Shown one piece after another: positions 1 to 28,657 of a stretch of DNA of 28,657 bases (the stretch's first letter is position 1; each line of letters begins with the position of its first letter). The position numbers and the translations under genes were made by a program. The DNA lies in the UHGV virus genome UHGV-0074437; one strand, given 5' to 3'. This DNA comes from a virus. The notes below the pieces were generated by a model. It saw only the letters and a program-made list of their open reading frames with translations. It ran no database searches and had not been told where the DNA came from.

Positions 1-363
1 ATGAACGAATATCAGTTTGTGCTTCCGTACCCGCCATCGGTGAATACCTACTGGCGAAGACGAGGAAGCCAATATTACATTAGCGATAAAGGCCAGAAAT
101 ACAGAAAAGACGTTCAGCAAATCATCCGCCAACTTAAGTTAGACATTTTCACCAAATCACGACTCCGCATAAAAGTCATCGCAGACGTTCCAGACTCCCG
201 CCGCCGCGACCTCGATAACATCCTGAAAGGTTTACTCGACTCCCTTATCCACGCCGGATTTGCGGAAGACGACGAGCAATTCGATGACATTCGCGTAATT
301 CGTGGTGTGAAAGTAGCAGGCGGACGGCTTGGAATAAAAATCACCGAACTGGAGAACGCATGA
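1..363 (+). CDS. rusA: RusA-family Holliday junction resolvase (lambdoid nin-region gene)
   Basis: 120-aa ORF starting at window position 1; N-terminus MNEYQFVLPYPPSVNTYWRRRGS and acidic D-x-D-N / DD residues match the RusA endonuclease family as recalled; sits directly upstream of ninH and Q as in lambdoid phages. The true start could lie upstream of the window. Confidence 0.8.
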   Translation: MNEYQFVLPYPPSVNTYWRRRGSQYYISDKGQKYRKDVQQIIRQLKLDIFTKSRLRIKVIADVPDSRRRDLDNILKGLLDSLIHAGFAEDDEQFDDIRVIRGVKVAGGRLGIKITELENA

Positions 364-548
364 ACGCCACAATTCAAACGATACCAGAGCTGCTTATACA
401 GGCACGAGGCAATCAGACCGAAGTGGCGAGGATGCTTTCCTGCGCAAGAGGAACAGTGCTCAAGTACAACCGAGACAGCAAAGGTGAGCGTCACGTAATA
501 GTTAACGGCGTCCTGATGGTCAAACAGGGAAAGAGGGGAAGACGATGA
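360..548 (+). CDS. ninH: NinH-like small DNA-binding protein
   Basis: 62-aa ORF overlapping the rusA stop by 4 nt (ATGA); motif GNQTEVARMLSCARGTVLKY...HVIVNGVLMV resembles lambda NinH as recalled; position immediately before Q. Confidence 0.65.
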   Translation: MNATIQTIPELLIQARGNQTEVARMLSCARGTVLKYNRDSKGERHVIVNGVLMVKQGKRGRR

Positions 549-1168
549 GACTCGAAAGCGTAGCTAAATTTCATTCGCCAAAAAGCCCAATGATGAGCGA
601 CTCACCACGGGCTACGGCTTCTGACTCTCTTTCCGGTACTGATGTGATGGCTGCTATGGGGATGGCGCAATCACAAGCCGGATTCGGTATGGCTGCATTC
701 TGCGGTAAGCATGAACTCAGCCAGAACGACAAACAAAAGGCTATCAACTATCTGATGCAATTTGCACACAAGGTATCGGGGAAATACCGTGGTGTGGCAA
801 AGCTCGAAGGAAATACTAAGGCAAAGGTACTGCAAGTGCTCGCAACATTCGCTTATGCGGATTATTGCCGTAGTGCCGCGACGCCGGGTGCAAGATGCAG
901 AGATTGCCACGGTACAGGCCGTGCGGTTGATATAGCCAAAACAGAGCAGTGGGGGAGAGTTGTTGAGAAAGAGTGCGGAAGATGCAAAGGTGTCGGCTAT
1001 TCAAGAATGCCAGCAAGCGCCGCATATCGCGCTGTAACGATGCTAATCCCAAACCTTACTCAACCCACCTGGTCACGCACTGTTAAGCCGCTGTATGACG
1101 CTCTGGTGGTGCAATGCCACAAGGAAGAGTCAATCGCAGACAACATTTTGAATGCGGTCACACGTTAG
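545..1168 (+). CDS. Q: Late-gene antiterminator Q (lambda Q type)
   Basis: 207-aa ORF, 4-nt overlap with upstream gene; zinc-binding CxxC...CxxC pair (CRDCHG...CGRCKG); sequence appears essentially identical to lambda Q from memory; followed by a PR'-like promoter and terminator. Confidence 0.9.
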   Translation: MRLESVAKFHSPKSPMMSDSPRATASDSLSGTDVMAAMGMAQSQAGFGMAAFCGKHELSQNDKQKAINYLMQFAHKVSGKYRGVAKLEGNTKAKVLQVLATFAYADYCRSAATPGARCRDCHGTGRAVDIAKTEQWGRVVEKECGRCKGVGYSRMPASAAYRAVTMLIPNLTQPTWSRTVKPLYDALVVQCHKEESIADNILNAVTR

Positions 1169-1210
1169 CAGCATGATTGCCACGGATGGCAACATATTAA
1201 CGGCATGATA

Positions 1211-1250
1211 TTGACTTTTTGAATAAAGTTGGGTAAATTTGACTCAACGA
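1211..1250 (+). promoter_or_regulatory. Late promoter PR' with presumed qut region (-35 TTGACT 1211-1216, 17-nt spacer, -10 TAAATT 1234-1239)
   Basis: Near-consensus sigma70 hexamers with 17-nt spacing located 43 nt after the Q stop, where lambda PR'/qut lies; the surrounding sequence (TTGGGTAAATTTGACTCAACGATGG) resembles the lambda PR' region as recalled. Confidence 0.6.
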
Positions 1251-1272
1251 TGGATAAATGCACTCGTTAAAT

Positions 1273-1310
1273 AAAGCCCTGAGTTAATAGCTCGGGGCTT
1301 TTTGCGTTTT
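1273..1310 (+). terminator. Intrinsic terminator of the short PR' leader transcript (tR'-like)
   Basis: Hairpin AAAGCCCTGAG / CTCGGGGCTTT (8-bp GC-rich stem with one G-U pair, 7-nt loop) followed by TTTTTGCGTTTT, about 30-35 nt downstream of the predicted PR' start. Confidence 0.6.
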
Positions 1311-1530
1311 AATCACGACCTTTCTGAAAGCACATCAAACCAAATACCAGACAGACAAAAATAATCACCTTATCCGCTGTGGCTACGGTGCGGTGTGCTT
1401 TGCATAAAAGAAAACCAGCGCAATGGCTGGCTTCGTGAAAGCGGGTGGCAAGAGGTTGCGCTAACAACCTCCTGCCGTTTTGCCCTTATTCCTAATTAAA
1501 TAGAGCAAATCCCCTTATTGGGGGTAAGAC

Positions 1531-1854
1531 ATGAAGATGCCAGAAAAACATGACCTGTTAGCCGCCATTCTCGCGGCAAAGGAACAAGGCATCGGGGCAA
1601 TCCTTGCGTTTGCAATGGCGTACCTTCGCGGCAGATATAATGGCGGTGCGTTTACAAAAACACTAATCGACGCAACGATGTGCGCCATTATCGCCTGGTT
1701 CATTCGTGACCTTCTCGACTTCGCCGGACTAAGTAGCAATCTCGCTTATATAACGAGCGTGTTCATCGGCTACATCGGTACTGACTCGATTGGTTCGCTT
1801 ATCAAACGCTTCGCTGCTAAAAAAGCCGGAGTAGAAGATGGTGGAAATCAATAA
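1531..1854 (+). CDS. S: Class I holin (lambda S type) with MKM dual-start motif
   Basis: 107-aa ORF beginning [22 protein letters not shown], matching lambda S from memory; hydrophobic transmembrane segments; CCCC...GGGG stem just upstream of the start, as in the lambda sdi structure; 17-nt overlap with the endolysin gene. Confidence 0.93.
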
Positions 1855-2314
1855 TCAACGTAAGGCGTTCCTCGATATGCTGGCGTGGTCAGAGGGAACT
1901 GATAACGGACGGCAGAAAACCAGAAATCATGGTTATGACGTCATTGTAGGCGGAGAGCTATTCACTGATTACTCCGATCACCCTCGCAAACTTGTCACGC
2001 TAAACCCAAAACTCAAATCAACAGCAGCCGGGCGCTATCAGCTTCTTTCCCGTTGGTGGGATGCCTACCGCAAGCAACTTGGCCTGAAAGACTTCTCTCC
2101 GAAAAGCCAGGACGCTGTTGCATTGCAGCAGATTAAGGAGCGTGGCGCTTTGCCGATGATTGATCGCGGTGATATTCGTCAGGCTATCGACCGTTGCAGC
2201 AATATCTGGGCTTCACTGCCGGGCGCTGGTTATGGCCAGTTCGAGCATAAGGCTGACAGCCTGATTGCAAAATTCAAAGAAGCTGGCGGAACGGTCAGAG
2301 AGATTGAGGTATGA
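1838..2314 (+). CDS. R: Endolysin, lytic transglycosylase (lambda R type)
   Basis: 158-aa ORF, sequence recalled as near-identical to lambda R ([39 protein letters not shown]...); canonical S-R-Rz order. Confidence 0.93.
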
Positions 2315-2748
2315 GCAGAGTCACCGCGATTATCTACGCTCTGATTATCTGTATCATCGTCTGCCTGTCATGGGCTGTTAATCATTACCGTGATAACGCC
2401 ATCGCCTACAAAGAGCAGCGCGATAAGACCGCATCCATCATCGCTGACATGCAGAAGCGTCAACGTGATGTAGCAGAACTCGACGCCAGATACACAAAGG
2501 AGCTTGCTGATGCTAACGCGACTATCGAAAGTCTCCGTGCTGATGTTTCTGCTGGGCGTAAGCGCCTGCAAGTCGCCGCCACCTGTGCAAAGTCAACGAC
2601 CGGAGCCAGCAGCATGGGCGATGGAGAAAGCCCAAGACTTACAGCAGATGCTGAACTCAATTATTACCGTCTCCGAAGTGGAATCGACAGGATAACCGCG
2701 CAGGTTAACTACCTGCAGGAATACATCAGGACGCAATGCCTGAAATAA
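2311..2748 (+). CDS. Rz: Inner-membrane spanin Rz
   Basis: 145-aa ORF overlapping the R stop (ATGA); N-terminal transmembrane helix ([18 protein letters not shown]) followed by a charged, coiled-coil-like periplasmic domain; position after the endolysin. Confidence 0.88.
2504..2695 (+). CDS. Rz1: Outer-membrane lipoprotein spanin Rz1, embedded in the +1 frame of Rz
   Basis: 63-aa ORF wholly inside Rz in another frame; signal peptide ending in lipobox-like VSAC, then a proline-rich mature region ([13 protein letters not shown]), the hallmark of Rz1. The exact start (2504 or a later ATG) is uncertain. Confidence 0.75.
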
Positions 2749-2780
2749 TTTTTTTGCAAATCACAAAGTCCATTTAATGA

Positions 2781-2806
2781 GCCTCGCGATGCGGGGCTTT
2801 TTTATG
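2781..2806 (+). terminator. Candidate intrinsic terminator downstream of the lysis cassette
   Basis: GCCTCGC-GAT-GCGGGGC hairpin (7-bp stem with one G-U pair) followed by TTTTTTAT, 33 nt after the Rz stop. Confidence 0.5.
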
Positions 2807-2931
2807 CGCCTCGCACGCGCAATTCAAACCAAGAACCTTTCAGGATGAACCTTGAGGAACCGGCTGGCTGTCGGAGCCTTCTTGGGGCCGTATTCCTGTG
2901 CGACAAGGTTCATCACTAAAAGGTAACTCCG

Positions 2932-3483
2932 ATGAATGATATTTCTATCGAATATCTGAAAGAAGCACTGGAATACACACCAGATTCAGGTGTTATCCGT
3001 TGGAAGCAGCGCCCCAAAAATCATTTTAAGACCGATAATTCTTGGCGGGCGACCAATGCCAATTTTGCCGGAAAGGTGGCAGGCGCACGTGATAATGATG
3101 GATATTTCCGCATCGGAATAGATGGTCGGTTATATAGATCTCATCGTGTCGCCTGGGCGTTACATTATGGCTATTGGCCTGAGAATGAGATTGATCACAT
3201 TTCAGGCGATAGAGGTGATAACCGCATAGACAACCTCCGAACAGTGACTTCGGCAGCCAACAACAAGAATTTGCGCCTTTACTCCACTAATAAAACAGGT
3301 GTCCCTGGCGTAGGTTGGTATAAAGCACGTGGGAAGTGGAGAGCAAAGATAAACGTCTCTGGAAAGGTGAAGCATATTGGTTACTTCGATGATTTCTGTG
3401 AAGCGGTGAAAGCAAGAAAGGCTGCTGAGATGAAATTGCAATATCACGAAAATCACGGAGCCGGCGACAGGCTCACTTTCTAA
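2932..3483 (+). CDS. HNH homing-type endonuclease with a C-terminal AP2-like DNA-binding domain
   Basis: 183-aa ORF; HNH_3-like motif HRVAWALHYGYWPENEIDHISGDRGDNRIDNLR followed by an AP2-like segment GVPGVGWYKARGKWRAKINVSGKVKHIGYFDDFCEAVKARKAAE; RBS-like AAAGG upstream. Confidence 0.75.
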   Translation: MNDISIEYLKEALEYTPDSGVIRWKQRPKNHFKTDNSWRATNANFAGKVAGARDNDGYFRIGIDGRLYRSHRVAWALHYGYWPENEIDHISGDRGDNRIDNLRTVTSAANNKNLRLYSTNKTGVPGVGWYKARGKWRAKINVSGKVKHIGYFDDFCEAVKARKAAEMKLQYHENHGAGDRLTF

Positions 3484-3497
3484 AAGGTAAAGACGCA

Positions 3498-4016
3498 ATG
3501 AATCATCAATTGGCTAATCTCGATTTCCGGGACATGGTGGTTGTTTCTGGTGATCGCGTGATCACAACCTCCCGCAAGGTAGCAGCTTACTTCGACAAGC
3601 AGCATCACCACATCATTCAGAAAATCGAAAAGCTAGACTGTTCGGATGAATTTCTAACCAGCAACTTTTCGCGGGTTACCTATGAACACAAGGGTAATCA
3701 GTATGTTGAATATGAAATTTCCAAAGACGGCGCGATGTACATCATCATGTCGTTTACCGGCAAAAAAGCTGCCGCCATCAAAGAGGCGTTTATCAAAGCA
3801 TTTAATTGGATGCGTGACAGGCTGATGGAGATGGCTCACTCATACCAAAGAGAGCACAACGAGTTAATGCTGGAGTTCATGAAGGAAAAGGATGTTGCCA
3901 GTATGTCAGGACGCTTGCTGAACCGCTGGGGCAGGATCAAAAAACCGCAACTCATAGCAAGAATCGAAAGGCTTGAGCAGCAGGCGCAAATATCGATCCC
4001 CGGACTGCCAAAGTGA
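3498..4016 (+). CDS. Rha-family phage regulatory protein
   Basis: 172-aa ORF; N-terminal region (VVVSGDRVITTSRKVAAYFDKQHHHIIQKIEKL...YEISKDGAMYIIMSFTGKKAAAIKEAFIKAFNWM) fits the Phage_pRha family pattern as recalled; RBS AAAGG 6 nt upstream. Confidence 0.7.
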   Translation: MNHQLANLDFRDMVVVSGDRVITTSRKVAAYFDKQHHHIIQKIEKLDCSDEFLTSNFSRVTYEHKGNQYVEYEISKDGAMYIIMSFTGKKAAAIKEAFIKAFNWMRDRLMEMAHSYQREHNELMLEFMKEKDVASMSGRLLNRWGRIKKPQLIARIERLEQQAQISIPGLPK

Positions 4017-4249
4017 CCATTCCAAAGCCCAACGGTGATGTTCTCAGAAAAATCGAGCAGGTTAAGGATGATTGCTCGCGTGAGTTTAGCCAACGCAATT
4101 TTGCGTCGGCTTATTATATCGATGAGCAGACCAAAGAGTTCTTAGCCGAGCTGGAGAAAAACCACGAATCTGTGGTTTTTACTGAGCGCGGCGCCCAAGC
4201 CAGTTTTTTTTGCATTACGGCAGTACTTCGAAACAACCCAAGCCAGTAA
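4013..4249 (+). CDS. Hypothetical small protein (GTG start overlapping the Rha stop)
   Basis: 78-aa ORF with no in-frame ATG, so it would need the GTG at 4013 (GTGA overlap with the Rha stop); no recognisable motif. Confidence 0.3.
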   Translation: MTIPKPNGDVLRKIEQVKDDCSREFSQRNFASAYYIDEQTKEFLAELEKNHESVVFTERGAQASFFCITAVLRNNPSQ

Positions 4250-4446
4250 GTGGGGAAATAACACTGGCAGCCACTGAAAGATGAACCTCCAGCCTTATGG
4301 CAAAAAAGATTCTTTGTGGTGGCGGACTGATGGAAAGACATCGGTTATTGCAGAGGCCATTCAATGAGTGGTCTCGACAATGACTTATACCCTACACGGG
4401 ATAACTTAACTGATATCCCTTTTAACGGATAAACGGAGCATAAATA

Positions 4447-22740: not shown

Positions 22741-23093
22741 TGCGATACCGACGAGAAGATGCTGACGGCGATTACACTTTCGGGCAAGGTGACGACACCT
22801 TCCTTATCGACAGTCCGGAATGTGTCGCCCAGGCCGTAAAAACCCGTTTCGAGCTCTGGCGCGGTCAGTGGTTTCTCGATCTGACGGAAGGCACGCCGTA
22901 TGTTCAGTCAGTGCTTGGGAAACAGCGATCAGACGTCTACATCCTGGCTATACGCGAACGCATACAGGACACGCCGGGCGTTCTGTCGATTCTTTCCTTC
23001 GATACCAATTATGACGGCACCAGCCGCCGCGTCACTTTCACTTCCTCCATTGACACAATCTACGGCCAGACGACTGTAACAAGCGAGGCATAA
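22740..23093 (+). CDS. Baseplate wedge protein (GPW / gp25-like)
   Basis: 117-aa ORF overlapping the V-like stop (ATAATG), of the size and position of P2 gpW / Mu gp46. Confidence 0.6.
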   Translation: MRYRREDADGDYTFGQGDDTFLIDSPECVAQAVKTRFELWRGQWFLDLTEGTPYVQSVLGKQRSDVYILAIRERIQDTPGVLSILSFDTNYDGTSRRVTFTSSIDTIYGQTTVTSEA

Positions 23094-24293
23094 ATGGCTT
23101 TGAACCTCGACACGCTGGGGCTATCGGCAACGGTAACCGCCCAGGGGATTAGTGCGCCTGATTACCAGACAATCCTCGATACACTGACCAGCTATTTCAG
23201 GCAGATTTACGGTAGTGATGCCTACCTAGAACCAGACAGCAAAGATGGGCAAATGGTCGCGCTGGTGGCTCTGGCTGTGCATGATGCTAACAATACCGCT
23301 ATCGAGATCTACAACTCGTTTTCACCGACGACAGCGCAGTCCGCAGCGCTTAGCAGCAATGTGAAAATTAACGGGATCACGCGAAAAGTAGCGACAAACT
23401 CTACTGCTGACCTTCTGTTAACCGGTACGGCGGGCACGACTATCACGAATGGCTCCGCACGGGATAAAAACGGCATTATCTGGAATTTTCCCGCGAGTGT
23501 AGCAATCGGGGTTGATGGTACTGTGCTGGTGACGGCCACATGTGCGAATAGCGGTTCGGTTGCGGCGCTGGCCGGGTCGATTACCACTATCAACACGCCG
23601 ACCCGTGGCTGGGCATCGGTAACCAACCCGGCGGCGGCCACCGTAGGCGCACCGGCTGAAACCGACGCAGAGCTGCGCATCAGGCAGGGACAAAGCGTAG
23701 CGCTACCATCCCTCACACCGTTTGAAGGTGTCGATGGTGCGATCGCCAACGTTGCAGGCGTGACACGTCACAAGCTCTACGAGAATGATACTGGTGTCAC
23801 CGACAGCAACGGGCTACCGCCTCATTCCATTTCCGCCATCGTTGATGGAGGTGATGTTGCCGAGATAGCCCAGACAATAAGGGGAAACAAAGGGCAGGGA
23901 ACAGCCACCTACGGGACAACATCTGTCACGGTGCCGGACACCTACGGTAACCCACACGTGATCAGTTTTTCGCGGTCTACTGATGTCCCGATTTACGGGC
24001 ATATCACCCTGAAAGCATTCACCGGCTACACGTCGCAAATTGGTGTACAGATTCAGCAGGCCGTCGCGGATTACATCAACGGGCTGACGATCGGCGACGA
24101 TGTGCTGCTGAGCAGGATCTACTCTCCGGCTAACCTCGGCGTAGTGAGTGGTGGCAACGCGCGCTACTACGACATACAGGAGCTGTTGATTGGCAAATCA
24201 GCTGGTAGCGTCGCGGCGGCAAACATCATCATCGCCTATAACGAATCCGCGTCGTGTAAGCCCGAAAATATTGTTCTAACGGTGACGTCATGA
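23094..24293 (+). CDS. Baseplate J-like protein
   Basis: 399-aa ORF of the size and position of Baseplate_J family proteins (P2 gpJ / Mu gp47), between the W-like and I-like genes. Confidence 0.7.
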   Translation: MALNLDTLGLSATVTAQGISAPDYQTILDTLTSYFRQIYGSDAYLEPDSKDGQMVALVALAVHDANNTAIEIYNSFSPTTAQSAALSSNVKINGITRKVATNSTADLLLTGTAGTTITNGSARDKNGIIWNFPASVAIGVDGTVLVTATCANSGSVAALAGSITTINTPTRGWASVTNPAAATVGAPAETDAELRIRQGQSVALPSLTPFEGVDGAIANVAGVTRHKLYENDTGVTDSNGLPPHSISAIVDGGDVAEIAQTIRGNKGQGTATYGTTSVTVPDTYGNPHVISFSRSTDVPIYGHITLKAFTGYTSQIGVQIQQAVADYINGLTIGDDVLLSRIYSPANLGVVSGGNARYYDIQELLIGKSAGSVAAANIIIAYNESASCKPENIVLTVTS

Positions 24294-24970
24294 GCAAGTA
24301 CACGGACTTAATCACCAACTATCACGCCACGAAGCCGAAATTTTTTGATCACGTCGACCTGAGCACCCGGCCACTGATTGATATCACTGCCGCCACCAGA
24401 GGGCTGCTAAGCGCTTTCGATATTGATACCGCCGTCGGCGTCCAGCTCGATACGCTCGGCCTCTGGATTGGCCGTAGTCGAATAGTCAGCCAGCCGATAA
24501 GTGGCGTTTATTTCAGTCTGGACACTGACGGGCTTGGGTTTGATCAGGGAGTATGGCAAGGCCCATATGACCCCGATTCGGGTTACACCACGCTGAGCGA
24601 CGAAACTTATCGCATCGTTCTTAAGGCGAAAATCGCTATCAACAACTGGGACGGCCGGAATGATTCGCTGCCTCCCATCCTTGACGCTGCAACTGCAGGC
24701 TCTGGCCTGAAGATGCAAATCGTCGACAACCAGGACATGACGATCTCGGTCTGGCTTTTTCCCGAGACTGACATTTCAGATGTGTCTCTCGAACTGATCG
24801 CCGCTATTAAACAGGGCTATCTCACTGTTAAAGCTGCTGGGGTGTGGGCCGGAGACGTTGAAACGCCATCGGTAGAAACACCATCCGAGGGCACGAAATT
24901 TTTTGGTTTTGATATGGATAACGAATACATCGCCGGATTTGACGATGGCGCATGGGGGAAATTACTGTAA
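24290..24970 (+). CDS. Baseplate/tail protein I-like (Mu gp48 position)
   Basis: 226-aa ORF overlapping the J stop (ATGA), directly upstream of the tail fibre gene. Confidence 0.55.
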   Translation: MSKYTDLITNYHATKPKFFDHVDLSTRPLIDITAATRGLLSAFDIDTAVGVQLDTLGLWIGRSRIVSQPISGVYFSLDTDGLGFDQGVWQGPYDPDSGYTTLSDETYRIVLKAKIAINNWDGRNDSLPPILDAATAGSGLKMQIVDNQDMTISVWLFPETDISDVSLELIAAIKQGYLTVKAAGVWAGDVETPSVETPSEGTKFFGFDMDNEYIAGFDDGAWGKLL

Positions 24971-25866
24971 TGGCTAAGAACGATTTTAAACCGTTTGCTA
25001 CCGGCTCTGGCGCAAACGTAATGTCCCAGACTGACTGGGAAGCACTGCCTGCGCTTTTGGCTGGATTTCAGTCTGGCAAGGCATCCAGTGCACAAATTAA
25101 CAAGGCATTTCGACAGTCCAGCTTTATCGCGGCCGCACTCGCTCAGTTTATTGCTGATACCAACGGTACTGATGTCCTGGATAATGGGAATTTTTCTGAC
25201 ATTGTTCTTAAATTGAAGTCTGCAATATCTACTGCTTCTACAGGACGTTTGTTGAATGTCAGAACGTTCACATCATCAGGAACGTATACGCCAACAGCAG
25301 GTACTAAGTTTGTTGTTGTGGAAGTTCAGGGCGGCGGTGGCGGCAGTGGCGGTGTGCCAGCTACTGGGTCCAGTAGCGTTGCTGCATCTGGCGCTGGCGG
25401 TGCAGGTGCTTATGCTAAAGCTTATATCACATCCGGATTTTCTGGCGTGTCTGTTACTGTAGGTGCTGGTGGTGCTGCTGGATCATCAGGCGGCGGTGAT
25501 GGTGGCGCGGGAGGCACCTCAAGCTTTGGGTCATTAGTCTCTTGCCCAGGTGGAACTGGTGGCGGCTCTACGGGAAGTGTCGCTGTGTCGTTCCCAACTT
25601 CTCGCGGAGGCAGTACAGAAACGGCAGCCCCTACAGGCGGTAACATTATTTCATCAAAAGGAAAGGCGGGTGCTGGTTCTACCGTAGTAAATGGAACTGT
25701 CGGTAACTTTGGCACAGGTGCGGCATCGCCATTCTCAGCAGGTGGAACTGGTGGCGATGGGGAGAACGGTTCTGGTGGCGGTGGATGGATTAACTTTGTC
25801 AGCCAATCCGCTCGCGCTGGCTACGCAGGTGGCAAAGGTCTGGTTGTTGTATGGGAATATGCTTGA
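24970..25866 (+). CDS. Tail fibre protein with a glycine-rich C-terminal domain
   Basis: Open frame 24952-25866; preferred start ATG 24970 (overlaps the upstream stop as TAATG, GGGGGA RBS), giving N-terminus MAKNDFKPFATGSGANVMSQTDWEALP; C-terminal half is a Gly-rich low-complexity region (GGGGGSGG, GAGGAAGSSGGGDGGAGG, GGTGGDGENGSGGGG). Confidence 0.75.
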   Translation: MAKNDFKPFATGSGANVMSQTDWEALPALLAGFQSGKASSAQINKAFRQSSFIAAALAQFIADTNGTDVLDNGNFSDIVLKLKSAISTASTGRLLNVRTFTSSGTYTPTAGTKFVVVEVQGGGGGSGGVPATGSSSVAASGAGGAGAYAKAYITSGFSGVSVTVGAGGAAGSSGGGDGGAGGTSSFGSLVSCPGGTGGGSTGSVAVSFPTSRGGSTETAAPTGGNIISSKGKAGAGSTVVNGTVGNFGTGAASPFSAGGTGGDGENGSGGGGWINFVSQSARAGYAGGKGLVVVWEYA

Positions 25867-25914
25867 TGAGCACAGTTGATTGTTGGTTTTGATATGAACC
25901 AGTAATTAACCATT

Positions 25915-25950
25915 AAAGCAGGGACTTTGTAACATAGCTCCCTGCTTTAT
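25915..25950. terminator. Candidate bidirectional terminator between the convergent tail fibre and acyltransferase genes
   Basis: 10-bp inverted repeat AAAGCAGGGA / TCCCTGCTTT (25915-25924 and 25939-25948) around a 14-nt loop, flanked by A-rich and T-rich sequence, between the two stop codons (25866 and 25978). Confidence 0.4.
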
Positions 25951-25977
25951 ACTCTAAATATTATGCAACCCTCACTT

Positions 25978-27141
25978 CTATCTGGCTTGAGATATTGAAA
26001 TAGATTTTGTTTTCCGCCCATACATCAAACGGCTAAGCGATATAGATGGGTTATCTATAAGCTTTGTAAATAAATGTGCTATTATTATGCTTGTGGGAAT
26101 CGTAAACACCCATACATAAATTGGGCTGTATTTATATAGTAAAAGTAACCCTATAGAAAGAATTGTATAATGTATAAGGTATAGCGAGAAAGATATTCTC
26201 CCAAGATAAAGACCAACAGACAGGAACTTACCCTCTTTTAATTTAAGTGAGCACACGATTAATCCAACGGCACCGATAGATGTCACAATATCACCAAGAC
26301 CTCTGTGTGATAAAGTCCATCCATTATTAAATGGGTAGCAATACAGCATTAAAGAAATTATCACCAGCAGGAATATGATTTTCTTGTCTATATTATTCAT
26401 TATTTCATTAGTTCTTTTCACATTTAAAGCAAGGTATGCACCAATTGTAAAAAATAACGAGTAATGAACTGTTAACAGGCTTGAGCTTAGGGGGTCTATA
26501 CCGTATAGATGCGGTTTAGAGTTCATGATAAATATACTAAGCATCGATGCCAACAAGGATAGCAGCACAAAGCGAAAGCCAAGTTTTTTCGTAAAGTACA
26601 GAATTAAAGGAAACGCTATCGAAATTCTAGCCTCGTAAACTAAGGACCATGCTGGAGGGTTTATTTCGAAGTAATTGTAAAACCCCAGCATGCCAATGTG
26701 ATTAACTATTGTTGCTAGATTGAAGTCTGGTTTTGCTACGCCCATCCATCCTTTTTCCCAGGAAAAACCACTTGATTTCATGACTGCAAAGACAATAGCC
26801 ACAAATAATAATGATGCAATGAATGGAATGTATAGGCGAGCTACCCTGGCTAACAGATATCTAAACATATTAAATGGATTTGCTGAGTTGATCATCATTG
26901 TTAAAGCAAACCCACTCAACACAAAGAAAACAATAACAGCTTGATGTCCAGCCCACAGAAAGCGAAATGGTGACCATTCAAGATACGGCCAGATAGTGGG
27001 GTTGTTATATAATCCAGCAACGGTTGTGTGAGCAAGCAAAACCGTTAGAGCAGCATAACCCCTAACTGCATCAAGAGATGGGATTCGTTTTGTATCTTTC
27101 ATTACTATTCTCATTTTAGTTTGTTGAGTCAATACTAACAT
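25978..27141 (-). CDS. Acyltransferase family 3 integral membrane protein (putative O-antigen / LPS O-acetyltransferase, lysogenic-conversion type)
   Basis: Minus-strand ORF with about 10 predicted transmembrane segments; N-terminal region KRIPSLDAVRGYAALTVLLAHT...FFVLSGFALT matches the acyltransferase_3 (OafA/Oac-type) signature; strongly AT-rich. Three candidate in-frame ATG starts (27141, 27114, 27102); the third gives MKDTKRIP, the usual N-terminus for this family. Confidence 0.8.
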   Translation of the reverse strand: MLVLTQQTKMRIVMKDTKRIPSLDAVRGYAALTVLLAHTTVAGLYNNPTIWPYLEWSPFRFLWAGHQAVIVFFVLSGFALTMMINSANPFNMFRYLLARVARLYIPFIASLLFVAIVFAVMKSSGFSWEKGWMGVAKPDFNLATIVNHIGMLGFYNYFEINPPAWSLVYEARISIAFPLILYFTKKLGFRFVLLSLLASMLSIFIMNSKPHLYGIDPLSSSLLTVHYSLFFTIGAYLALNVKRTNEIMNNIDKKIIFLLVIISLMLYCYPFNNGWTLSHRGLGDIVTSIGAVGLIVCSLKLKEGKFLSVGLYLGRISFSLYLIHYTILSIGLLLLYKYSPIYVWVFTIPTSIIIAHLFTKLIDNPSISLSRLMYGRKTKSISISQAR

Positions 27142-27457
27142 CCATCTGGAGGTTTAAGAAACATCCTCAGCATCCATAACACTTAAGGCTGGCGCCAGCA
27201 CAGAGAAAGCGAAATGGTGACCATTCAAGATACGGCCAGATAGTGGGGTTGTTATATAATCCAGCAACGGTTGTGTGAGCAAGCAAAACCGTTAGAGCAG
27301 CATAACCCCTAACTGCATCAAGAGATGGGATTCGTTTTGTATCTTTCATTACTATTCTCATTTTAGTTTGTTGAGTCAATACTAACATCCATCTGGAGGT
27401 TTAAGAAACATCCTCAGCATCCATAACACTTAAGGCTGGCGCCAGCACAGAGAAAGC
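26957..27457. repeat. Tandem direct duplication (2 x 247 bp plus 7 bp) covering the 5' end and upstream region of the acyltransferase gene
   Basis: 26957-27203 is repeated identically at 27204-27450 (checked at several anchor points); identity continues 7 nt (AGAAAGC, 27451-27457) into a third unit; the junctions coincide with the short direct repeat AGAAAGC. Confidence 0.85.
27167..27388 (-). pseudogene. Truncated duplicate of the acyltransferase 5' end (62 identical N-terminal codons plus an 11-codon out-of-context tail)
   Basis: Minus-strand ORF whose first 62 residues are identical to the acyltransferase N-terminus, then diverge at the duplication junction into CAGASLKCYGC-stop. Confidence 0.7.
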
Positions 27458-27550
27458 ACTTGCCGCACTTCATTAAAATTTCGCAAATTTTTCTAATTGG
27501 CAAGAATGAATATCATCCGGACCAAGTAGTTATGACTAACCATGAACAGC

Positions 27551-27575
27551 AAACCCCGCTTCGGCGGGTTTTTTA
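27551..27575 (+). terminator. Intrinsic terminator (UUCG-loop hairpin plus T-tract) immediately upstream of the RBS of the next plus-strand gene
   Basis: AAACCCCGC-ttcg-GCGGG followed by TTTTTTATT, then AAGGAG RBS and the ATG at 27595; same architecture as the 21965-21990 element. Confidence 0.5.
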
Positions 27576-27594
27576 TTGCACTAAGGAGTGCTCA

Positions 27595-27978
27595 ATGCAA
27601 TACGCATTAGTCAAAGACGGTGTCGTTGAAAACATAGTTGAATGGGATGGGACCGGAAATCCCTTTCCTGATTATGAAGTGATTGCAGTAAGCGCAGGCG
27701 GCGTGGGTGTGGGATGGTTATGGCAGGATGGGGTATTCGTTAACCCTAACGCACCATCGGAACCGACTGATGCCGAGTTGTATGACGCTGATCTTGCGGC
27801 GATCAACGCAGAGTACGAAAAGGACAAAAAGGACCTGGTATACGAATACGCAACTATCGGCCTTTTCGACGGTGCAAATGAGGACGCAAAGAAAGCGGCT
27901 GTGTACAGCAAGCTGCAGGCGCGGATTCAAAAGTACGCTTCTGATGTAGAAGCTCTGGATGAGAAATATGGGGGTTAA
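27595..27978 (+). CDS. Hypothetical protein, possibly tail-fibre-associated (assembly/chaperone candidate by position)
   Basis: 127-aa product from the ATG at 27595 with a strong AAGGAG RBS; the open frame extends upstream to 27460 but that part overlaps the terminator-like hairpin; acidic C-terminal half; no motif recognised with certainty. Confidence 0.5.
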   Translation: MQYALVKDGVVENIVEWDGTGNPFPDYEVIAVSAGGVGVGWLWQDGVFVNPNAPSEPTDAELYDADLAAINAEYEKDKKDLVYEYATIGLFDGANEDAKKAAVYSKLQARIQKYASDVEALDEKYGG

Positions 27979-27979
27979 C

Positions 27980-28147
27980 ATGGCAGAACAAGCAGAAAGC
28001 AGCGCAGCAACTACCGTACCCGATACATGTCCGAACTGTCTGGAAGTTGGGACGGTGAGCATCATTACAAAGACGATCGGAGGGGTAGTTAAATACTACT
28101 ACCAGTGTTCGTCTTGCGGCTATCGCTGGCCGGTACCAGCTGCATAA
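27980..28147 (+). CDS. Small zinc-ribbon protein (CxxC-x22-CxxC)
   Basis: 55-aa product from the ATG at 27980 (GGGGG 5 nt upstream, 1-nt gap after the preceding stop); cysteine pairs CPNC and CSSC separated by 22 residues. Confidence 0.5.
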   Translation: MAEQAESSAATTVPDTCPNCLEVGTVSIITKTIGGVVKYYYQCSSCGYRWPVPAA

Positions 28148-28208
28148 ATTTATTCCCCATCAAAACAAACCGATACCGCGCTTCGGTAGTAAAGAGGCGC
28201 ATCTTCAG

Positions 28209-28252
28209 TTGATCTGCTGGAACCTGAAATTATACTGTATGCGTATACAGTA
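28209..28252 (+). promoter_or_regulatory. SOS-regulated promoter: -35 TTGATC (28209-28214), -10 TATACT (28231-28236), overlapping a LexA box TACTGTATGCGTATACAGTA (28233-28252)
   Basis: The 20-bp palindrome matches the E. coli LexA-box consensus CTGT-N8-ACAG with TA-rich flanks; the sigma70-like hexamers are spaced 16 nt apart and overlap the box; located 15 nt upstream of the umuD-like start codon. Confidence 0.75.
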
Positions 28253-28267
28253 TTTTGGAGGTGCATC

Positions 28268-28657
28268 ATGGGATTTCCATCGCCAGCAGCAGACTACGTT
28301 GAAGAACGCATATCACTCGATAAGCGTCTTATCGCTCATCCTTCAGCCACCTACATGATGGTAGCGGGCTCTACATACCTGCGCGCTGGGATCATGAAGG
28401 GCGCAATGCTTATCGTCGACTCGTCGCTGACGCCGAAGGATGGTTCTCTGCTTGTCTGTGCTGTTGATGGTGAGTTCAGGATCATGCGTTACAGGACGCT
28501 GCCGCATCCTTGCCTGGAGAACCCTGAGAATGGAAGGAGGGAGCCACTACCATCAAAGGATGAGGTATCTGATACATCGCGGCCAGTATTCGGGGTGATT
28601 ACGTACAGCATCAACGATGCTCGCTCTGGCGAGTTCGACGACTGCCCGGTGATGTGA
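28268..28657 (+). CDS. UmuD'-like S24-peptidase-fold protein (natively N-truncated UmuD homolog, humD-like)
   Basis: 129-aa ORF with GGAGG RBS; N-terminus MGFPSPAADYVEERI aligns with E. coli UmuD beginning at the Cys24-Gly25 autocleavage site (as recalled); S24 core motifs present (HPSATYMM, GAMLIVDSS, VCAVDGEF). There is no in-frame upstream ATG. The stop is at the last base of the window. Confidence 0.8.
   Translation: MGFPSPAADYVEERISLDKRLIAHPSATYMMVAGSTYLRAGIMKGAMLIVDSSLTPKDGSLLVCAVDGEFRIMRYRTLPHPCLENPENGRREPLPSKDEVSDTSRPVFGVITYSINDARSGEFDDCPVM

Follow-up and report, generated by a model that had tools for sequence, protein, structure and literature searches.

A recent 247-nt tandem duplication at the 5' end of a prophage acyltransferase gene of Escherichia coli: probably a passive polymorphism rather than an evolved switch

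When a prophage gene is found to carry a second, exact copy of its own 5' end, is the repeat a device for turning the gene on and off, an error of assembly or simply an accident of replication? The question is raised by UHGV virus genome UHGV-0074437, analyzed here as one stretch of 28,657 nucleotides (nt; "the window"), in which a 247-nt segment comprising the leader and the first codons of a predicted acyltransferase gene is present twice in tandem. In the initial annotation, this arrangement was proposed to act as a reversible ON/OFF switch for a surface-antigen-modifying enzyme, with an assembly artefact as the alternative. The reading that we favor, at a probability of roughly three in four, is a different one: a recent, spontaneous microhomology-mediated tandem duplication (MTD), carried by some isolates as a passive, near-neutral polymorphism and not as an evolved switch.

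By direct sequence comparison, positions 26957-27203 and 27204-27450 were found to be identical over 247 nt, with 0 mismatches, and the period-247 identity extends 7 nt past the second copy, to 27457 (AGAAAGC), giving 2.03 head-to-tail copies of the unit without a mismatch. The repeat thus stands exactly as it was first described, including the 7 nt of a third unit. Tandem Repeats Finder delimited the array as 26948-27457 (period, 247; 2.1 copies; score, 1006) and reported no other tandem repeat in the window. The exactness of a 247-nt tandem copy rules out chance. The array consists of the following elements:

26957..27203, minus strand: copy 1 of the unit, gene-proximal; supplies the intact acyltransferase gene with its true 5' end, codons 1-49, and with its 101-nt leader
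27204..27450, minus strand: copy 2 of the unit, distal, holding a second leader and codons 1-49; missing from the single-copy relatives L002, L003 and L005
26957-26963, 27204-27210 and, as third occurrence, 27451..27457, no strand assigned: microhomology arm AGAAAGC
26948..26963, no strand assigned: longer imperfect direct repeat CCAGCCCACAGAAAGC, 14/16 positions of which match CCAGCACAGAGAAAGC at 27195-27210 and 27442-27457
27188..27199, with a second copy at 27435-27446, no strand assigned: perfect 12-nt palindrome GCTGGCGCCAGC, 4 nt from the upstream junction arm

The AGAAAGC arms are embedded in the imperfect repeat, which can be written as CCAGC[C/A]CA[C/G]AGAAAGC, and the palindrome is present twice because it lies inside the duplicated unit.

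What did the locus look like before the second copy appeared? Exact-protein look-ups returned seven distinct records of the same locus with one copy of the unit (GCA_012454425.1, JGI 3300076509, ERZ27262418, GCA_012745905.1, GCA_037892085.1, GCA_025392175.1 and GCA_045011495.1). Aligned to the window, the single-copy records (L002, L003 and L005 among them) differ from it by a clean gap of 247 nt and in no other respect; in L005, 0 differences were counted over 22978-28657 outside the gap. These alleles form the majority among the records found, and they contain two AGAAAGC arms spaced 247 nt apart. Judged from the alignments, the single copy is the ancestral state and the duplication the derived allele. 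By the same comparison the event is very recent, since there are 0 differences between the copies and 0 single-nucleotide polymorphisms in the flanks. Every record holding the acyltransferase cassette is a draft assembly or a metagenome. A near-identity DNA search with 25800-27700 found no match in the phage collection; in 5,426 complete E. coli genomes, the cassette was absent and only a 146-nt flank matched. A protein-based search of genome contigs gave no confirmed relative.

Taken as a mutation, the repeat shows every feature of an MTD that can be judged from sequence: the copies are arranged head to tail, an arm stands before each copy and once after the last, and the single-copy ancestor has the flanking arms. 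The microhomology origin that had been suggested by the position of the junctions on AGAAAGC therefore fits, with an arm of 7 nt and with single-copy relatives that carry both arms 247 nt apart. The accepted mechanism of MTD is replication slippage or template switching. During replication of the prophage in E. coli, a nascent strand would have slipped, or switched template, between the two AGAAAGC arms 247 nt apart, within the 14/16 imperfect repeat and beside the 12-nt palindrome, and the palindrome, GCTGGCGCCAGC, may favor stalling or template switching. Such slippage would copy codons 1-49 of the cargo acyltransferase gene together with its 5' leader, leaving the proximal copy as a complete, unaltered gene and adding, with the distal copy, only a 60-codon N-terminal fragment open reading frame (ORF). 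Recombination or slippage between the 247-nt repeats could restore the single copy. The enzyme is expected to be affected modestly or not at all, and the allele would be close to neutral.

MTDs, described in S. pombe and reported across bacteria, are said to be frequent, reversible and the dominant form of tandem duplication (PMC8639346; bioRxiv 10.64898/2026.02.28.708716). In E. coli assemblies, about 13,000 strain-variable tandem-duplication loci are reported, most of which have microhomology arms and half of which have arms of >3 nt (bioRxiv 10.64898/2026.02.28.708716). The present locus resembles those cases in its exact head-to-tail copy between short arms, in the occurrence of the arm n+1 times, in being strain specific among otherwise identical genomes and in the possibility, in principle, of reversion by losing one copy. 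There is no difference in kind, and 247 nt with a 7-nt arm makes an unremarkable example. In two homologous cassettes (L010, 88% identical, and L011, 84% identical), the arms are degraded rather than conserved; the ability to duplicate at this position is therefore not a maintained feature, which counts against an evolved switch.

Could the repeat have been created by the assembler? Unmerged overlapping contig ends might have been concatenated, for example, or a loop in the assembly graph might have been wrongly resolved, and the perfect identity of the copies would suit such an origin, as would the confinement of the cassette to drafts and metagenomes and its absence from all of the complete E. 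coli genomes. However, the ends of an unmerged overlap are arbitrary and would coincide with a 7-nt arm by chance at about 4^-7, and junction k-mers need reads, yet the junction recurs in an independent assembly. Its 30-mer was found in GCA_013424585.1 (L006/L018), which matches the window at 100% identity, and in k119_45756 of ENA ERZ27241579 (L009), a MEGAHIT contig of 500 nt that corresponds at 100% to window positions 27159-27658. Exact scans for this 30-mer in viral contigs, JGI metagenome contigs and GTDB species representatives returned zero hits, a weak negative because the metagenome set is incomplete. Zero hits were likewise obtained with a unit-internal 26-mer in viral and metagenome contigs, which is equally weak, since JGI 3300076509|Ga0564285_01167 (L003) contains the 26-mer and was missed.

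Additional traces of the junction appear at contig ends. A 325-aa "partial" E. coli protein (P0061; four NCBI accessions, EOM4926987.1, EOM9953980.1, EPN0839704.1 and HCO3785656.1, on three contigs) starts at W50, the first residue past the breakpoint, and contig ABXXFZ010000036.1 (GCA_047874185.1; L013, position 1) has its first base at window position 26955 and matches the window at 100% identity from there onward. The assembly graph of a duplicated genome forks at 26956, where G continues into the gene body and C into the next copy, and the contig start lies one base beyond this fork. Because the break falls at the fork, and a single-copy genome has no fork there, we infer that the three contigs behind P0061, representing at least three further E. 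coli assemblies, also hold the junction in unresolved form. A reciprocal deletion allele was ruled out as the cause of the W50 break; the fork produced by such a junction would fall on the opposite side of the 7-nt arm. An assembly with the same accession style (L008) reads straight through with one copy. With a second dataset containing the junction, and with at least three further assemblies breaking exactly at the predicted fork while L008-type assemblies run through with one copy, the artefact considered in the initial annotation is largely excluded, and we regard it as exceedingly improbable.

Where does the acyltransferase gene begin, and what does the duplication add to it? Two coding features have to be distinguished:

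25978..27102, minus strand: complete acyltransferase gene of the AT3 family, encoding 374 aa from ATG 27102; the longest ORF extends to 27141 (387 aa)
27167..27349, minus strand: fragment ORF made by the duplication, 60 codons, with enzyme residues 1-49 followed by 11 new ones (CAGASLKCYGC); as a mechanical ORF it runs on to 27388 (73 codons)

The minus-strand ORF 25978-27141 (387 aa) scored 110.4 bits against Pfam PF01757 Acyl_transf_3 over residues 21-358 (curated cut-off, 31 bits). Numbered from ATG 27102, the protein contains the AT3 motifs R14-x10-H25 and R86-V-A-R89, corresponding to R/K-x10-H in the first membrane helix and RxxR, both treated as essential in the AT3 literature (PMC9558356). 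On the basis of profile and motifs, the acyltransferase belongs to the AT3 (PF01757) family. As for its start, a 100% identical 374-aa E. coli protein in the database (P0001) begins at ATG 27102, and the 13 codons 27141-27102 are interrupted by an in-frame stop in both L010 and L011. Because of this stop in the extension, the conserved start is probably ATG 27102, or possibly ATG 27114, and ATG 27141, the start of the longest ORF, would not be that of the gene. The 387-aa form from ATG 27141 is annotated all the same in one NCBI and one JGI record. Counted from ATG 27102, the unit comprises 146 nt of coding sequence and 101 nt upstream (158 and 89 from ATG 27114); the division into 185 nt coding and 62 nt upstream given initially is not compatible with the homologue-based start.

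The corrected start also affects the fragment. An ORF of 73 codons at 27167-27388, as first listed, does exist mechanically, but it shortens to 60 codons (27349-27167) once the start is corrected; the 60-aa product is identical to a fragment ORF annotated on the MEGAHIT contig that carries the junction, and a database look-up of the 73-aa version returned no record. The 49 enzyme residues in the fragment cover the first membrane helix, R14 and H25 included. Since RxxR and the remainder of the protein are missing, the peptide cannot be an enzyme.

As to what the intact enzyme might do, PHROGs gave a generic match to phrog_3333 ("O-acetyltransferase") and a weak one to phrog_6705 ("O-antigen acetylase"), and searches of NCBIfam and PDB with the acyltransferase gave no match. 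A role as an O-antigen acetyltransferase is plausible from the AT3 family and from the prophage context beside a tail-fibre gene. The closest parallel is with Oac of Shigella phage Sf6 (PMC9558356), which is likewise a PF01757, AT3-only protein of ~370 aa, with R/K-x10-H and RxxR, and prophage borne; in sequence, however, no close relative of the 374-aa protein was found among 50,697 phage records, the best match being at ~30% identity in Tunturiibacter phages.

A further variant of the same leader deserves mention. A 1725-bp ENA contig encodes a 381-aa form of the protein (P0066) that begins with MLSLCWRQ and continues as the enzyme from K2, and MLSLCWRQ is the translation of GTGCTTTCTCTGTGCTGGCGCCAG, the sequence with which the unit is bounded upstream. 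It is implied that, in that metagenome contig, an 89-nt deletion removed most of the leader and the ATG (window 27347-27435, duplicate 27100-27188); this leader would then have undergone a second rearrangement.

Does the second copy change expression of the gene? The displacement pointed out in the initial annotation is correct as geometry: the duplication has moved any sequence upstream of 27450 away from the intact gene by an additional 247 nt and has placed the fragment ORF in between. If the promoter were outside the unit, the additional 247 nt and the translated fragment ORF might lower or otherwise alter expression, and loss or gain of a copy would then produce heritable but reversible variation in surface acetylation. 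This geometry, the presence of the allele in more than one dataset and the apparent second rearrangement implied by P0066 all speak for such a switch or modulator. However, the gene is uninterrupted because the duplicated segment includes its start, and the duplicated allele retains the complete 374-aa gene with its start codon, ribosome-binding region and 101 nt of native leader. Folding predictions gave a mean unpaired probability around the true start of 0.533 for the single-copy leader (234 nt) and 0.525 for the duplicated one (481 nt), and the local predicted structure near the start is the same in both; in the duplicated leader, the two GCTGGCGCCAGC copies are predicted to pair, looping out the fragment ORF. 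No terminator-like site was found within the unit, and an Rfam scan of the whole window detected no RNA family, so no known riboswitch or leader RNA is involved. The stop codon of the fragment ORF is separated from the true ATG downstream by 64 nt, a spacing that is short for Rho-dependent polarity.

Much of this argument depends on the position of the promoter. A consensus scan, a relaxed scan and an alignment of three homologous leaders revealed no convincing sigma-70 promoter outside the unit. The sole promoter-like matches at the tool threshold, TTGACT-17-AATAGT (9/12) and, in the relaxed scan, ATGTTA-17-TAAAAT (8/12), lie in the unit, in the leader block that is better conserved in L010 and L011 than any other upstream segment. 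Being inside the unit, these best matches are duplicated and not displaced, which argues against a switch and raises another possibility, namely, that two tandem promoters increase acyltransferase expression and that the duplication was selected for this effect. The conservation of the leader block and the recurrence of the allele across datasets would agree with an expression-enhancing duplication of this kind. Nevertheless, both matches are poorly placed, as transcription from either would begin beyond ATG 27102 or no more than a few nucleotides from it; the 8 consensus matches found in the region do not exceed the shuffled expectation (5.7 +/- 2.3); and single-copy alleles are in the majority. 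We therefore consider selection for enhanced expression unlikely. If the promoter does lie inside the unit, it has been duplicated and the gene keeps its native promoter; neither this placement nor one outside the unit predicts an OFF state.

Known systems of surface variation offer precedents for a switch, and differences from them are informative. Genes for O-antigen modification that phages carry are often subject to phase variation by other routes (PMC9558356); in Salmonella, phage-borne gtr operons and oafB undergo Dam/OxyR epigenetic phase variation (PMC3688519, PMC4413052, PMC5364305; PMC9558356). Like these, the acyltransferase gene is prophage cargo, and it would belong to the same broad class, that of O-antigen modification, OafB too having an AT3 domain; for such a gene, ON/OFF control is biologically plausible. 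The Salmonella systems, however, need GATC-containing OxyR sites upstream, whereas GATC is absent throughout 26900-27620, which rules out Dam/OxyR-type switching, and the enzyme here is AT3-only, without an SGNH domain. Duplication-based phase variation does exist in pneumococcal capsule genes: spontaneous duplications in cap3A, cap8E and tts are reported to cause capsule phase variation (Waite 2001, 2003, as cited in PMC4243769). Both systems involve a spontaneous tandem duplication that is potentially reversible by precise excision, the role in surface polysaccharide being a presumed one in our case; the pneumococcal duplications fall inside the ORF and destroy it, yielding OFF, whereas here the 5' end is spanned and a complete gene stays. 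The interruption of the reading frame that characterizes cap3A is thus not seen, and the 374-aa ORF persists with its native start and 101-nt leader.

Given an intact gene with its 101-nt leader, unchanged predicted accessibility, a unit free of terminators, no GATC sites and arms that are not conserved in homologous cassettes, the proposed ON/OFF switch finds no support, and we judge a switch or modulator of expression decidedly unlikely. A stronger version can be imagined, in which a reversible copy-number switch in the leader circulates among E. coli lineages, tunes or silences surface acetylation and thereby varies recognition by phages or antibodies. While the junction in several datasets and the implied 89-nt leader deletion of P0066 would fit, we hold this to be highly unlikely.

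Several points nevertheless weigh against a passive MTD as the full account. First, the argument from contig breaks reasons from the behavior of assemblers, the junction being inferred rather than directly seen in the assemblies concerned. Second, the copy number of the duplicated allele is judged from assemblies rather than reads and may be two or more. Third, the presence of the allele in several datasets could reflect clonal spread of a neutral allele but also recurrence or selection. Finally, were the promoter to lie wholly in 27451-27554, the leader would be longer by 247 nt and would contain a translated upstream ORF, in which case expression could change.

What kind of locus hosts the duplication? 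The window is an E. coli prophage, a mosaic of two modules. Positions 1-4439 form a Q-antiterminator/lysis segment ~97% identical to HK97, mEp235 and HK022, and positions 1856-24998 a contractile-tail structural module with 87-91% identity to Citrobacter phage Omnitron and E. coli vB_EcoM-6xx phages; Salmonella phage SEN34, together with Omnitron, is the best likeness of this module. In related contigs, the prophage adjoins dacD. A gene for an S24 peptidase (UmuD/LexA-like) at 28268-28657 (L002 4732-5121) is the final prophage gene before the chromosomal dacD. Around the acyltransferase gene, the following features were recognized:

24952..25866, plus strand: tail-fibre gene (glycine-rich domain), convergent with the acyltransferase gene; left neighbor of the slot
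27555..27568, no strand assigned: G+C-rich hairpin, terminator-like on both strands, between the acyltransferase leader and the 127-aa gene
27595..27978, plus strand: 127-aa gene whose product has no assigned function, divergent; constant right neighbor of the slot
L004 4895-5980, L015 355-1440, L019 328-1440 and L021 355-1440, in prophages at dacD or yedD: other loci examined for AT3 genes in the slot

The acyltransferase gene is the lone minus-strand gene between the tail-fibre and 127-aa genes. On the plus strand, the hairpin at 27555-27568 is located immediately 5' of the ribosome-binding site of the 127-aa gene; its position bounds the space available for an acyltransferase promoter. It is kept in the homologous cassettes L010 and L011 and, from this comparison, appears to travel with the acyltransferase module. 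Homologues of the 374-aa acyltransferase were found beside tail-fibre genes of unrelated prophages, and the gene is a mobile cargo cassette. At least three different AT3 genes occupy the slot itself (25867-27594) across related E. coli prophages: the one for 374 aa on the minus strand here and, on the plus strand in other prophages, genes for 361 aa and 370 aa. It looks like a hot spot for cargo, with cassettes in either orientation.

In summary, the duplication is probably an ordinary, recent and near-neutral structural polymorphism in a prophage cargo gene. As it stands, it carries little biological weight, being one more strain-specific MTD among the thousands reported in E. coli assemblies. 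The duplication being real, annotators should expect a spurious "acyltransferase fragment" of 60 to 73 codons 5' of the true gene, and contig breaks are to be expected at this spot in short-read assemblies, where contigs ending one base past the fork with a W50-start "partial" acyltransferase are the signature of an unresolved duplication. If a switch were to operate here after all, duplication-based phase variation would no longer be confined to disruption within genes but would also take in the insertion of a leader and upstream ORF. In either case, the one-copy and two-copy alleles form a natural pair for asking whether leader length affects expression of the acyltransferase.

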